Shown one piece after another: positions 31,144 to 62,868 of a DNA stretch of 64,000 nt. Position 1 is the first letter of the stretch. Each line of letters opens with the position of its first letter. The position numbers and the translations under genes are program-made. Source of the stretch: Octopus vulgaris (taxonomy: Eukaryota); contig OX597827.1 of NCBI GenBank assembly GCA_951406725.2, forward strand, positions 28,892,001 to 28,956,000. Direction: 5' to 3'. The notes beneath the pieces were generated by a model. It was not told the DNA's origin, did no database searches, and saw nothing but the letters and a program-made list of their open reading frames with translations.

Positions 31144-31180
<37 letters not shown>

Positions 31181-31348
31181 CATAAGGGACTAAAGCCATC
31201 TGAATATGGCTAGGGACAGGGCAGGGTGGTGGGGGTGTTACTGTTGCATTTAGCCCCAGGCGAACATCGACGTCACCAGAAAGGCTCGACACCGTCACGC
31301 TGCCCTTAACCTGCAAAGGGAGGTAATTCCCCGATGAAGCGGAAACCA

Positions 31349-31394
31349 CACACGGACCATGGTTTCAAGGTGTATTGCCTATCATCGGCGTGTG
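31349..31394 (-). ncRNA. Type I hammerhead ribozyme, inverted block (also 31709-31754)
   Basis: Exact reverse complement of 32098-32143. Confidence 0.8.
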
Positions 31395-32097
31395 GTAGGC
31401 CTCCGCTTCCTCGACGAATTCTCACTCTGCAGGATTTTCTTATATAGATTTTCAAGCAAAATACATTTGCTGATTTCGAAAATCTGTTCGAAAGCAATAA
31501 TAATTCTCTAAAAGGGATATAGACAGTAACTGCTCGATAACATAAGGGACTAAAGCCATCTGAATATGGCTAGGGACAGGGCAGGGTGGTGGGGGTGTTA
31601 CTGTTGCATTTAGCCCCAGGCGAACATCGACGTCACCAGAAAGGCTCGACACCGTCACGGTGCCCTTAACCTGCAAAGGGAGGTAATTCCCCGATGAAGC
31701 GGAAACCACACACGGACCATGGTTTCAAGGTGTATTGCCTATCATCGGCGTGTGGTAGGCCTCCGCTTCCTCGACGAATTCTCACTCTGCAGGATTTTCT
31801 TATATAGATTTTCAAGCAAAATACATTTGCTGATTTCGAAAATCTGTTCGAAAGCAATAATAATTCTCTCGCCTGGGGCTAAATGCAACAGTAACACCCC
31901 CACCACCCTGCCCTGTCCCTAGCCATATTCAGATGGCTTTAGTCCCTTATGTTATCGAGCAGTTACTGTCTATATCCCTTTTAGAGAATTATTATTGCTT
32001 TCGAACAGATTTTCGAAATCAGCAAATGTATTTTGCTTGAAAATCTATATAAGAAAATCCTGCAGAGTGAGAATTCGTCGAGGAAGCGGAGGCCTAC

Positions 32098-32143
32098 CAC
32101 ACGCCGATGATAGGCAATACACCTTGAAACCATGGTCCGTGTG
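32098..32143 (+). ncRNA. Type I hammerhead ribozyme (repeated at +360, +720, +1080, +1440)
   Basis: CACACG-CCGATGA-TAGG(CAATACA)CCTT-GAAAC-CATG-GTC^CGTGTG; predicted cleavage after 32137; helix I extends over 32079-32160. Confidence 0.8.
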
Positions 32144-33797
32144 TGGTTTCCGCTTCATCGGGGAATTACCTCCCTTTGCAGGTTAAGGGCACCGTGACGG
32201 TGTCGAGCCTTTCTGGTGACGTCGATGTTCGCCTGGGGCTAAATGCAACAGTAACACCCCCACCACCCTGCCCTGTCCCTAGCCATATTCAGATGGCTTT
32301 AGTCCCTTATGTTATCGAGCAGTTACTGTCTATATCCCTTTTAGAGAATTATTATTGCTTTCGAACAGATTTTCGAAATCAGCAAATGTATTTTGCTTGA
32401 AAATCTATATAAGAAAATCCTGCAGAGTGAGAATTCGTCGAGGAAGCGGAGGCCTACCACACGCCGATGATAGGCAATACACCTTGAAACCATGGTCCGT
32501 GTGTGGTTTCCGCTTCATCGGGGAATTACCTCCCTTTGCAGGTTAAGGGCACCGTGACGGTGTCGAGCCTTTCTGGTGACGTCGATGTTCGCCTGGGGCT
32601 AAATGCAACAGTAACACCCCCACCAACCTGCCCTGTCCCTAGCCATATTCAGATGGCTTTAGTCCCTTATGTTATCGAGCAGTTACTGTCTATATCCCTT
32701 TTAGAGAATTATTATTGCTTTCGAACAGATTTTCGAAATCAGCAAATGTATTTTGCTTGAAAATCTATATAAGAAAATCCTGCAGAGTGAGAATTCGTCG
32801 AGGAAGCGGAGGCCTACCACACGCCGATGATAGGCAATACACCTTGAAACCATGGTCCGTGTGTGGTTTCCGCTTCATCGGGGAATTACCTCCCTTTGCA
32901 GGTTAAGGGCACCGTGACGGTGTCGAGCCTTTCTGGTGACGTCGATGTTCGCCTGGGGCTAAATGCAACAGTAACACCCCCACCACCCTGCCCTGTCCCT
33001 AGCCATATTCAGATGGCTTTAGTCCCTTATGTTATCGAGCAGTTACTGTCTATATCCCTTTTAGAGAATTATTATTGCTTTCGAACAGATTTTCGAAATC
33101 AGCAAATGTATTTTGCTTGAAAATCTATATAAGAAAATCCTGCAGAGTGAGAATTCGTCGAGGAAGCGGAGGCCTACCACACGCCGATGATAGGCAATAC
33201 ACCTTGAAACCATGGTCCGTGTGTGGTTTCCGCTTCATCGGGGAATTACCTCCCTTTGCAGGTTAAGGGCACCGTGACGGTGTCGAGCCTTTCTGGTGAC
33301 GTCGATGTTCGCCTGGGGCTAAATGCAACAGTAACACCCCCACCAACCTGCCCTGTCCCTAGCCATATTCAGATGGCTTTAGTCCCTTATGTTATCGAGC
33401 AGTTACTGTCTATATCCCTTTTAGAGAATTATTATTGCTTTCGAACAGATTTTCGAAATCAGCAAATGTATTTTGCTTGAAAATCTATATAAGAAAATCC
33501 TGCAGAGTGAGAATTCGTCGAGGAAGCGGAGGCCTACCACACGCCGATGATAGGCAATACACCTTGAAACCATGGTCCGTGTGTGGTTTCCGCTTCATCG
33601 GGGAATTACCTCCCTTTGCAGGTTAAGGGCACCGTGACGGTGTCGAGCCTTTCTGGTGACGTCGATGTTCGCCTGGGGCTAAATGCAACAGTAACACCCC
33701 CACCACCCTGCCCTGTCCCTAGCCATATTCAGATGGCTTTAGTCCCTTATGTTATCGAGCAGTTACTGTCTATATCCCTTTTAGAGAATTATTATTG

Positions 33798-33842
<45 letters not shown>

Positions 33843-43157: not shown

Positions 43158-43604
43158 ATATATATGCATACATACAAACACACACACAGTATATAGACAT
43201 ATATAATGCATGATCGGCCAGAATATCGGTTGTTCTTATACATCGCTTATACACCCCCACCCCCAATATTCCTTGTTTTATCTGAAGGCTACTGCGTCGC
43301 AGAATTATCCTTTTACAGCTGAGTTGTCTGAAGCAATAGGAAATCAAGTGTTTTGCTCAAGAACGCAACGTGCAGCCGTTGTGGCTATCAAAACCACGAC
43401 CTCGTGAGGGCAACACTCTTAATCACGAGGCCACGCGCCTTCACACACACGCAAACACACACATAAACACACACACACACACACACACACTTATGTATAT
43501 TCCTCCTTTGTTAGCTTATTGAGATAGTTCTCTTGTCAGCTTTGACTCTTATTTCTAGCAATACCGGTACCGTCTGACACTTTAGTGACGTTTATATATA
43601 TATA

Positions 43605-43704
43605 CTTATTCTCTCGGTCTCTTTTCCCGACCCGCTATGTTACGGGCACGTAAATACACCAGCATCGGTTGTCAAGCGATGTTGGATGGACAAACACAGA
43701 CACA

Positions 43705-43748
<44 letters not shown>

Positions 43749-43930
43749 TACACACTCATATATATACATATATACGACGGGCTTCTTTCAGTTTCCGTCT
43801 GCCAAATCCACGCACAAGGCTTTGGTCGGCTCGAGGCTATAGTAGAAGACACTTGCCCAAGGTGCCACGCAGTAGGACTGAAACCAAGACTATATGGCTG
43901 GTAAGCAAGCTATTTACCACAGAACCACTC
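43605..43930 (-). mobile_element. SINE family A
   Basis: Reverse complement of the family A consensus. Confidence 0.8.
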
Positions 43931-44110
43931 CTATATATATACTTTCATTTTTTTATTCTCTTACTTTTATCAGTCATTTGAATGCGGTCATGCTGGAGCA
44001 CCGCCTCAAGTCGAACAAATCGACCCCAGGACATATTCTATCGGACTTTTGTGTGGAACCGCTAAGTTTCGGGAACAAACACAGGCACAAACATACTCGC
44101 ACACGCACAC

Positions 44111-44167
<57 letters not shown>

Positions 44168-44499
44168 CTTAATCCAAACATGAAAACACAAAGAGAAAAC
44201 ACAACGCAAAAACGTGGACCAAGTATAGTGTTATTGGACGCTCAGGAAGGAAAGAAAGAACGAAGATATAACGTTTCGAGCGGAGACTTTGTCAGAAACA
44301 TAGGAAAAGGAAAGATCCAAGGAAGGGAAGACGGAGGAAAAAATCGCCAACGATATATATATGGAGATGTACTCGCATAGCAAGTAATTTGATCTGAGAT
44401 CGTGTGCTGAAACGAAAACAATTGCAGCGTGGAAGGTGTTTATAAGCCATTTAAGAAACACACAAAAGCCGTTCGATTCACTTCAACATTTAAGTTTAA

Positions 44500-44549
44500 T
44501 TTGTCAAAATATTTTCGTCGCTAAAATCCGCGACCTGTTCACTGACAAA
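44500..44549 (-). ncRNA. Type I hammerhead with swapped G3-C8 core
   Basis: TTTGTCA-GTGAACA-G-GTCGC(GGATTTTA)GCGAC-GAAA-ATAT-TT-TGACAAA. Confidence 0.7.
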
Positions 44550-45564
44550 AATCCGTGCTGCATCTGAGAAAGTAACAGTTAGTTCGTCATATATATGTAC
44601 GTATGTATGTGTGTATGTATGCATACATGTGTGTATGTATGTACGTATGCATGTACGTACATACGCCTGTGTATGCATGTATGCATGTATGTATGTATGT
44701 ATGTATGTATGTAGGTATGTATGTATGTATGTATGTATGTATGTATGTATGTATATATGTATGTGTGTGTATATGCACGCACATACACTCTATAAACATA
44801 AAGCTATAAACCTGTAGCGATGGATGGATGTAGAGTGATCACTCATCACAATGCTATCAAATTTCAACTTCCTCCGGCCGAAGCTTGGAAGTGATTTACG
44901 ACGCTTACTCCCAAAACTATACCCTAAAACCTATTATCAGATCTTTATCTCTATATCACAGAACTTTTGTTTTACTATTGTGCGTATGTATGTATGTATG
45001 TATGTATGTGCGTATGTATGTATGTATGTATGTATGTATGTATGTATGTATGTATGTATGTATGTGTGTATGTATGTGTGTATGTACATACGTACGCATG
45101 TGCGTATGTATGTATACGCGCACGTATGCATGTGCCCATGTATGTGTGTGCGTACATGTACGTGCGTATGTACGTGTGTATGCCCATACGTAGGTATGTA
45201 TATATGTTTGTACTCATGTGCTACGTATGTATGTGAGTGTCTAGGAGAATGGGCAGACGTGTCTGTGAGAGTGTGTACATGTGTATGTGTATGTGAACGT
45301 ATGTCCGTGTACTGGCATGTGTCCGTCCAAGTTGTGTACATGACTGTTACTTTGTTGAAAATTGTATACATATTCACATATATGTTTGTTTAGACGCACA
45401 CACATATATATATATGTGTGGGTGTATGTTTGTTCCTCTCATCATCGTCTAACCGTGAATGGATACAACGCCTAAGTGCAACTGTACGTATCAAACAACG
45501 TACGCTCATACCGTTATATATAACTGCACATACGCATTGCAACCTGTATGTAAGGACTACAGGT

Positions 45565-45625
<61 letters not shown>

Positions 45626-45627
45626 GG

Positions 45628-47435
45628 TTATAGAATAGCCCTTCTGAATGGGATCTGGATGTTACTCCATTCGGACTTTCGGTTGAGAGTAGGTTTGTAT
45701 TCTTGTATACAAACAGCTTCTGTGACCTGTCTCAACATTGCATCGGTGGGATGTGTTGATAGGATGTTCAACTTAAGTTTCCCTAAGGATTCCTTGTGGC
45801 AGTCTACAGCATGTTGGTAGAAGATGGAGTTTGGCTTCCTTTCAATGTAGTTGTCCAGGTGTTCTTTGAACCTATCATTGATGCTTCTAGAAGTCTCACC
45901 TATGTATGACTCTGGGTTAGTCGCGCAAGCTCCCTCCTGGCACTTAATCTGGTATACAGTGCCCTTGGTTTTACAATTTACATGTGGATTTGTCGAACAT
46001 ACTGCACAATTACTTTGACAGGTGATTCTATCAAATGGATATGATCTGCATAATGCCGATTTGATAGTCCTACCTGTCTTTTCTACAACTTTAATTTTTA
46101 GGCCCGTAGTGCGCAGGATTTTCTTGAATGCCTTACTTAGCTCGTTCTTAGGTGTGGTGTCAACGAACATCACTCCGTGAAATCTCCTGTTATCGTACCA
46201 AGTAACGTTTCTCATCTTTTTGTTGGTGTCCCTCTCTAACCTATTCCAGAACTTGTTGCGGTATAGGGGGCATATACCGTTTTCGTCGTTCCTTAGAATG
46301 CGTTCGAATCTAGCTTTCGCTCCTTTGTACACCCTGACTCTATCGTCTTGTGTGTATCCGGAGCGTTGCATTCGGAATATGTAGTGCTGGATGTGTTGTT
46401 GTCGTTCTTGCGGTTGGCATAGTGGTGATACATTCCTCATTACTCTAACTAAGTCTGCTACTAGGATGTTGAGTTTGGCAGTATCCGACATAGCTGAGTC
46501 ACTACGGATTACTAGTGGATTAGCCATCGGTTTCTGATAGTGTGAGTGGAGTATACAGGGTTTAATGGTTCTATTCACCATAGCATCTTCCATCCATAGC
46601 TCAGTATCTAGAACGGGTAATCGTTTACTGGGGTGTTTAGAGGGGTAGTCTATGGTAAGTTTTATACTGCTGTGGATAGAGTCAGCTATGTGTTGTATAG
46701 ATGTCATCACCTGTTCTTCACTTGGTAGAGGGCCCATAACTGTGTCTGTATTATATTTCACAACAAGGTTAATGTCGTCGACGTAACGAGAGTACATAGC
46801 CAAGTGGATGTTACGGTTTGCTAGGTACTGTTTAAAACGCTTGTCCCACCATACCATGAAGAGGTTTGCAACGTCACCGGCGATCCCCACTCCAATAGCA
46901 CCGCCTTTCGTTTGCTTATACAGTTTGTTGTCAAAATTTAAGAATATGTGTTTTTAGCGTAAACCTCAGGCTGACACCGATAGCATGTGCGATGGTGGTT
47001 CTAATATCGTGTGCACTTGAAGGTGGGTAGTCCGGCTTTGTCCATCCCTGCCAGCGCTCACAGTGAGTCTTCCTGTAAGCTGAGGTAATGGTAGGTGGTC
47101 TACCGCGTTTGTTACGGGTGGGACAAGCATATAGAAGGTTATTGCGCGACAGGTATTCATTGGTACACGTCAGGGCCAGGAAGAGCCCTAGTTCATATAC
47201 ATCCACATTCTTAAATATCATACCACTCTCACTAACTATTTCTATACATTTATCGACAGCAAAGTCTACATCGATGGAGGGGTATAGTGATACCACATCC
47301 ATGCTACCCACGATGTGGTTCTTGAGGTCACACGTGTTGTTGCATTCGCGGATCCTGCTAAGGAGGTCCTCAGTACTGTCACATACATCCGCAGATAGTT
47401 CTATTAACGGTCGTAGGAATTGTGAGTGAAAATTG
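45628..47435 (-). mobile_element. Penelope-like retroelement, 5'-truncated, RT + GIY-YIG, one frameshift near 46935
   Basis: GSMDVVSLYPSI, YKQTKGGAIG..DVANLFM, YSRYVDD, LPVLD; then CAVC..NC..KGTVYQIKC..YIGETSRSINDRFKEH..RQVTEA..PTLN. Confidence 0.95.
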
Positions 47436-47437
47436 TG

Positions 47438-47510
<73 letters not shown>

Positions 47511-47519
47511 CATATATAT

Positions 47520-47703
47520 ACGACGAGCTTCTTCTGGTTTCCGTCTACCAAATCCACTCACAAGGCTTTGGTCGGTCCGAGGCTACAGCAGAAGGTGTCG
47601 AAGGTGCCACGCAGTGGAACTGAATCCAGAACCATGTTGATGGCAATCAAGCTTCTTACCACACAGCCACTCCTACGGTTCACCAAAGAGCCACTTCTGC
47701 GCC
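47520..47703 (-). mobile_element. SINE family A, 5' part
   Basis: cttaccacacagccactcct...gccacgcagtggaactgaatcc. Confidence 0.75.
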
Positions 47704-59827: not shown

Positions 59828-60180
59828 ATACATTTGACGGATATTTGTCCTCAACTTGTTTGTTGCTAACACAACGTTTCAGCTCGTATGCCCTCTTGGC
59901 TTGGGGGGTGTTTTTTCCAACGGTTGTAATGGATCCTCTCACGAACGAGGGCATGTTCTGCGCTTTCCACTACTCTTCTAACTTTATATGAGTTCACTGG
60001 TGTCATTATATTCAAGCCAGATAGTATTAGCTTTGAGTCTCTACATCTACGCAGGATGTCTTGGGGACACCTGATGAAGGCTGGAGGGTATATCAGCCGA
60101 AACGTTGTGTTAGCAACAAACAAGATGAGGACAAATATCAATCATATCTAAATGATGTAAATAATGTACATAATTTTTCA
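59828..60180. mobile_element. Penelope pLTR-like inverted repeat with canonical HHR (60066-60111, +)
   Basis: GACAC-CTGATGA-A-GGCTG(GAGGGTATAT)CAGCC-GAAAC-GTT-GTGTT; left arm 59828-59895 is inverted. Confidence 0.8.
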
Positions 60181-62827: not shown

Positions 62828-62868
62828 CGTGCTGATGATGGCTATGAAGCCAGAAACAACCGTATACG
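62828..62868 (+). ncRNA. Canonical-core type I hammerhead ribozyme
   Basis: CGTG-CTGATGA-TGGCT(ATGA)AGCCA-GAAAC(AACC)GTA^TACG. Confidence 0.75.

Follow-up and report, generated by a model that had tools for sequence, protein, structure and literature searches.

The window analysed here, a 64,000-nucleotide stretch of Octopus vulgaris DNA, contains a hammerhead ribozyme motif that reads on the minus strand from 44549 to 44500. In minus-strand order it consists of stem I TTTGTCA, the core GTGAACA, an extra G, stem II GTCGC/GCGAC with an 8-nt loop, GAAA, ATATT, U17 and finally stem I' TGACAAA; the palindrome AAAATATTTT occupies 44506-44515. The perfect 7-bp helix I, the 5-bp stem II, the GAAA, the palindrome and the core GUGAACA claimed in an earlier note on this DNA are therefore all confirmed, on the minus strand. 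Two features absent from that note are the extra G after A9 and the membership of the motif in a Penelope-like retroelement. The copy of this element that carries it is 5'-truncated, 3.1 kb long and situated between TA repeats (44353-47437, minus), with the motif close to its end. Coordinates of all features are collected in Table 1.

Table 1. Features of the hammerhead motif and its host element in the window
Feature	Position	Strand	Remarks
pLTR unit	44353..44565	minus	5' UTR with hammerhead, ATG at 44450, about 30 first ORF codons, TA-repeat end
Type I minimal hammerhead fold, G3-C8 core	44500..44549	minus	fold and descriptor
GAAA and palindromic stem III region	44506..44516	minus	
Stem II (5 bp) and 8-nt loop	44517..44534	minus	loop varies among subfamilies
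Core GUGAACA plus extra G	44535..44542	minus	G3 = 44542, C8 = 44537; extra G at 44535, between A9 and G10.1
Putative capped transcription start	44565..44565	minus	A in TCAGAT, 23 nt before G3
Element 3' UTR	44566..45627	minus	TACA-repeat-rich
5'-truncated Penelope-like ORF	45628..47437	minus	RT with YVDD, CX3CX2C linker, C-terminal GIY-YIG
TA repeat	47439-47520		

Folded as RNA, the motif reaches -14.7 kcal/mol (z -3.4), and 1 of 200 shuffles was equally good. Stems I and II, with G10.1-C11.1, are present around the core, mostly with predicted pair probabilities above 0.9. Pairing of G3·U17 is predicted with p 0.65, and a monomeric stem III is predicted to cost 5.4 kcal/mol, two predictions that speak against a fast ribozyme. 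From hammerhead numbering, the cut would fall after U17, between 44507 and 44506. The Watson-Crick pair 3-8 is there with U4, G5, A6 and A9 kept, and so are GAAA, A15.1-U16.1, an NUH triplet and the palindromic stem III. The literal core CUGANGA is absent; since the core reads GUGAACA instead, we file the motif as a variant rather than a canonical member. When positions 3 and 8 were left free in a descriptor requiring at least 7 pairs in stem I and at least 5 in stem II, 0.01 such motifs per 64-kb window were found in 100 resamplings of the window. An Rfam scan of the window gave no hit reaching the gathering score, and the 89 matches at E<=10 within 43500-45500 included no hammerhead; these matches were dismissed as microsatellite noise. 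The earlier expectation that canonical searches miss the motif thus holds for Rfam.

The pLTR unit is delimited by the pLTR-ORF junction in the near-full-length copy L394 and by clusters of copy ends. The ORF in the window is split between two frames by a break near 46940, and Pfam returned nothing significant for it. Another copy, L061, has a 1025-aa open frame with YVDD, in which Pfam found GIY-YIG with E 1.8e-5, above cut-off, and gave no RT hit; PF00078 is carried by 1 of 112 homologues. The L061 frame thus represents a single ORF with RT and C-terminal GIY-YIG. The linker CQSNCAVC precedes the endonuclease and matches CX2-5CxxC, a feature of the Neptune/Nematis type as defined in PMC8557442. 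Judged by this linker in the sequence, the element is an EN+ Penelope-like element of the Neptune/Nematis type. Its copies also display pLTRs, partial tandem and inverted 5'-truncated arrangements and TA-repeat targets, and the motif is located in the pLTR, as in other Penelope-like elements. Most family copies are solo pLTRs, and about 11 match most of the 5' part of the ORF. We rejected a non-LTR retrozyme, which would consist of tandem ORF-less repeats with a hammerhead in each, since here a single motif ends an ORF-bearing copy.

At one locus (L407), at least seven pLTR units of the motif family form a tandem array at a spacing of about 170-190 bp with the motif in each, a setting in which hammerhead dimers could form. 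The window has a separate array, a near-perfect 360-bp tandem repeat at 31177-33799 in two blocks apparently in opposite orientation; related sequence follows the copy in L002.

Where does the motif lie with respect to the transcript? In L394 the pLTR runs into the ORF, and the ATG lies 92 nt after G3 (window 44450). We mapped the ends of 153 family copies at loci picked by pattern. As many as 103 start no more than 30 nt upstream of G3 (65 of them at -26 to -17), and 10 extend beyond that distance. The 3' ends form two clusters, at +121 to +128 and at +178 to +189, within the first codons, which fits internal starts of reverse transcription as in the lizard Penelope element (PMC11167929).

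A non-genomic G precedes the start in 14 of the 16 copies that begin at A(-23). Genome-wide, the letter before the 44565 start is G in 906 cases versus A in 141, and a control one base inside the start gave G 85 versus T 311 (control patterns being three letters longer). Loose contig ends also fall at 44565 in run X15. From the untemplated G we infer that transcription begins at 44565 with a cap. Such a start probably places the motif in the 5' UTR; the predicted cut would then lie 59 nt downstream of the inferred cap and 56 nt upstream of the ATG. Point changes within a subfamily were discarded as the source of the G, since they account for just 6 of the 906 instances, in longer copies. A splice acceptor was likewise rejected as the explanation of the 5' boundary: 40 of the 906 G-bearing copies were examined, and no upstream exon shared among them was found. 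Many of these 40 read TA-repeat, G, start, and for about 16 the G could have been templated by an inverted neighbour. A branch-point-like and pyrimidine-AG sequence at 44563-44585 (minus) overlaps the inferred start. Our literature search found no mention of a cap signature for Penelope elements; the untemplated G would offer a simple genomic means to map their transcription starts.

We next consider whether G3-C8 is a property of the family. The check proposed in the earlier note, whether GTGAACA is the consensus, gave a clear result: this core is present in 39 of 41 motif copies when loci are chosen solely by the endonuclease protein. Genome-wide, a shared scaffold pattern matched 7,447 exact G3-C8 copies (control 1), 552 with G3 and non-C8 (control 5), 358 with non-G3 and C8 (control 0) and 7,164 with neither (control 18), numbers that stem from a handful of families and not from thousands of events. 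By eye, the first 100 of the 7,164 comprise U-A 62, C-G 23, U·G 5 and 10 mismatched. Only stem-aware patterns were informative, as a loose G3-C8 pattern showed no enrichment (505 versus 473 in the control).

Young copies are 98-99% alike, so constancy within the family by itself says little. Among copies, the helices are kept and loop II turns over. G3 and C8 also persist in an older family, whose sequence is 66-75% identical to that of the window family over 145 nt, compared with a mean of 54% for shuffles; at this distance of about 70% identity the two differ in N7 and loop II. In contigs from four public runs with four organism labels, motif differences reaching at least 5% were confined to loop II or preserved pairing as G·U, and there were none in the core. 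A metagenome scan for relatives produced one weak locus only, and all relatives examined are from octopus.

Related families in the genome use C3-G8 or U3-A8, which together with G3-C8 makes three Watson-Crick pairs at 3-8; every large family examined has such a pair. In the P0001 family (58% protein identity), the hammerhead occupies the homologous place beside the ORF. RT/EN remnants resembling the element adjoin 3 of 30 loci with neither G3 nor C8, with 48% identity in L144. Twelve hand-picked rows, related rather than independent, have CG 5, GC 5, UA 1 and mismatch 1 at 3-8 (paired in 11); in their stem II, pairing reaches 95% and two double changes occur. By eye, stem I changes on both sides between families (UCA/UGA, CCA/UGG, CUA/UAG), and stem III has A-U versus G-C at 15.2-16.2. 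These comparisons, which rest on a few events, show covariation of 3 with 8 among related families.

Two of the sister families deserve separate mention. P0001 (L081-L090) is very young; its frames reach 1312 aa, and its copies include direct pLTR-ORF-pLTR arrangements. The U3-A8 hammerhead family (L123-L151) has thousands of copies, one of which (L144) is adjoined by a related RT/EN ORF.

All G3 families seen have U17, and C17 occurs as a family state only with C3. In the youngest P0001 subfamily, C replaces A9 together with U17, and older copies have A9 with C17; C9 in this subfamily suggests relaxed cores in the clade. A published remark, given as data not shown, holds G3-C8 to be less active with C17 than with G17 (PMC3884650). 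Judging from the few families available, the swap may have been possible because U17 avoids a G3-C17 trap.

Against the background of the window family, G8 was found in 165 copies, and 49 of 51 examined have a G3·G8 mismatch. About 30 of the G3·G8 copies constitute a subfamily whose members occupy separate insertion sites, evidence that the 3-8 pair was dispensable for a short burst. Some 27-28 G3·G8 copies, with a common loop variant, are among the matches listed on C16 (1.3-11.5 Mb, L252-L267), and those fetched from this cluster differ in their flanks. The shared loop and differing flanks imply that a mismatched lineage transposed for a while, and the clustering suggests local hopping from one master. 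G3·G8 is not favoured as an ancestral intermediate: C8 is already present in the older family, and identity among the G3·G8 copies is 95%. An older near-full-length copy (L400) has a 5' pLTR with G3·G8 and an A insertion. The earlier idea of a compensated variant under structural selection is partly borne out, as regards the kept helices and the 3-8 covariation, and is weakened by the spread of the G3·G8 subfamily.

That positions 3 and 8 form a pair has been proven by engineered swaps. Minimal type I hammerheads in the pLTRs of metazoan Penelope-like elements were described by Cervera and de la Pena in 2014 (PMC4209133). The octopus motif resembles them in sitting in a pLTR, in carrying an extra nucleotide after A9, in its G10.1-C11.1 pair and short palindromic stem III, in U17, which is frequent among them, and in occurring as thousands of solo copies. 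The earlier note called the UUU triplet weak, but U17 is ordinary among these hammerheads (20 of 44 rows by eye in the supplement of PMC4209133). Unlike them, the octopus motif has a longer stem I (7 bp), an inserted G where their consensus has H, and, in place of C3-G8 or U3-A8, the pair G3-C8, which is absent from all 44 rows compared. The natural U3-A8 variant occurs in Schistosoma according to the same source. Natural 3-8 covariation in the form U3-A8 was also reported by Perreault et al. in 2011 (PMC3088659), whose filter rejected core changes in repeats. Our motif shares with those variants the 3-8 covariation in nature, but G3-C8 does not appear in the available part of that study.

The closest functional parallel is the PAc (Anolis Poseidon) hammerhead. 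Its engineered C3G/G8C mutant is partly active and protein-assisted (PMC11167929); the rescue by double change that the earlier note invoked is partial in this Penelope hammerhead. According to the same study, cleavage in the lizard Penelope element needed protein and left no RNA-seq ends. As in PAc, the hammerhead is at the pLTR-ORF junction, reverse transcription appears to start in the early ORF, and uncut RNA would be the main template. Unlike in PAc, where the swap was engineered, it is natural and fixed here; the octopus motif also lies wholly upstream of the ATG, and its element has the Neptune/Nematis-type linker. Viral type I hammerheads in 5' UTRs promote cap-independent translation and cleave in vivo (PMC13725137); the octopus motif is of the same type and likewise precedes an ORF, in a probable 5' UTR, but its cleavage is a prediction. 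In the literature searched, with incomplete coverage of papers on hammerhead variants, we found no natural G3-C8, only the engineered rescue, and the natural 3-8 forms encountered were C-G and U-A only.

Taken together, the data make it probable that the swapped-core hammerhead, fixed in the pLTR of a high-copy Penelope-like element, lies in the 5' leader of the capped element mRNA and cuts only slowly. The fold, the family-wide swap, the pLTR location upstream of the ORF start and the 3-8 covariation among families are the established parts of this reading. We looked for traces of cutting among the copies, in a sample of 90 of 261 matches. No excess of 5' ends was observed at the predicted cut: 10 of 88 lie there, compared with 2-18 at neighbouring positions. 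Of two C3-G8 sister families used as small controls, one has 12 of 30 cut-site ends with CpG decay allowed and 5 under strict counting (30 of 32 examined), and the other 3 of 30 (30 of 158 examined). Given these mixed counts in C3-G8 sisters, the missing footprint does not single out the G3-C8 family.

The strongest alternative, which we consider rather unlikely though worth serious attention, is that the fold was selected as a 5'-leader structure for protein binding, template handling or translation, with negligible catalysis. The absent footprint agrees with such a role. So do the copies made through the uncut motif (the 103 of 153 starting just upstream of G3), the spread of the G3·G8 and C9 subfamilies, and the ability of the Penelope protein to insert in vitro without need for cleavage (PMC11167929). 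Given the mixed sister-family counts, however, the lack of footprint does not single this family out. Also against such a role, pairing of 3 with 8 belongs to the active conformation of the core (PMC3884650), and the pair covaries among families as three Watson-Crick versions.

It appears distinctly improbable that the hammerhead has decayed and hitchhikes with a successful element, its two changes unselected and the Watson-Crick match owed to luck. The near-identity of young copies deprives their constancy of much weight, and Naiad elements thrive without canonical hammerheads (PMC8557442), both of which would suit a relic. Nevertheless, the core is unchanged except for N7 between families about 70% identical, loop II and the flanks vary when the stems do not, and position 3-8 is Watson-Crick in each of the large families. 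Finally, a chance hairpin in repeat-rich DNA, to which the missing Rfam hit might point, is refuted by the family data, with an expectation of 0.01 per window and a position homologous to that of the canonical hammerheads of sister families.

Returning to the swapped-core hammerhead with slow cutting, we envisage the following course. Transcription would start in the pLTR, and most of the RNA would stay capped and uncut, to be translated and used as template. Reverse transcription would begin inside the first codons and pass through the uncut motif to the cap, which might account for the thousands of solo pLTRs. Cleavage is predicted to be occasional and slow, taking place as a dimer, in an RNP or with help from the protein of the element. 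Cutting after UUU would either strip off the cap together with 59 nt or release the RNA of the element from read-through transcripts. Over long spans, selection would maintain the Watson-Crick 3-8 pair and tolerate weak forms. A more specific version, which we hold to be less likely than not, is that of a natural, long-fixed and active G3-C8 hammerhead that, from within the 5' leader of a Penelope mRNA, acts as a slow timer of decapping. Were such a timer real, related elements within one genome would present a natural exchange series of C3-G8, U3-A8 and G3-C8, G3 would have arisen on a U17 background that permitted it, and CUGANGA searches would overlook entire ribozyme families.

With more than 7,000 copies, the G-C form widens the hammerhead consensus and reveals what standard searches miss. 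With the inferred cap, the predicted cut, the ATG and the reverse-transcription starts mapped, and with sister cores at hand, the role of a Penelope hammerhead becomes directly testable; for comparison, the sister families supply three core pairs plus a mismatched subfamily.

Other hammerheads are present in the window as well. A remnant with the core CTGACAA, belonging to a different abundant repeat, adjoins the element at 44268-44298 (minus), and the L029 copy of this repeat has the hammerhead core CTGACGA. Two more hammerhead folds, both with canonical C3-G8 cores, are found on the plus strand at 60066-60111 and 62828-62868.
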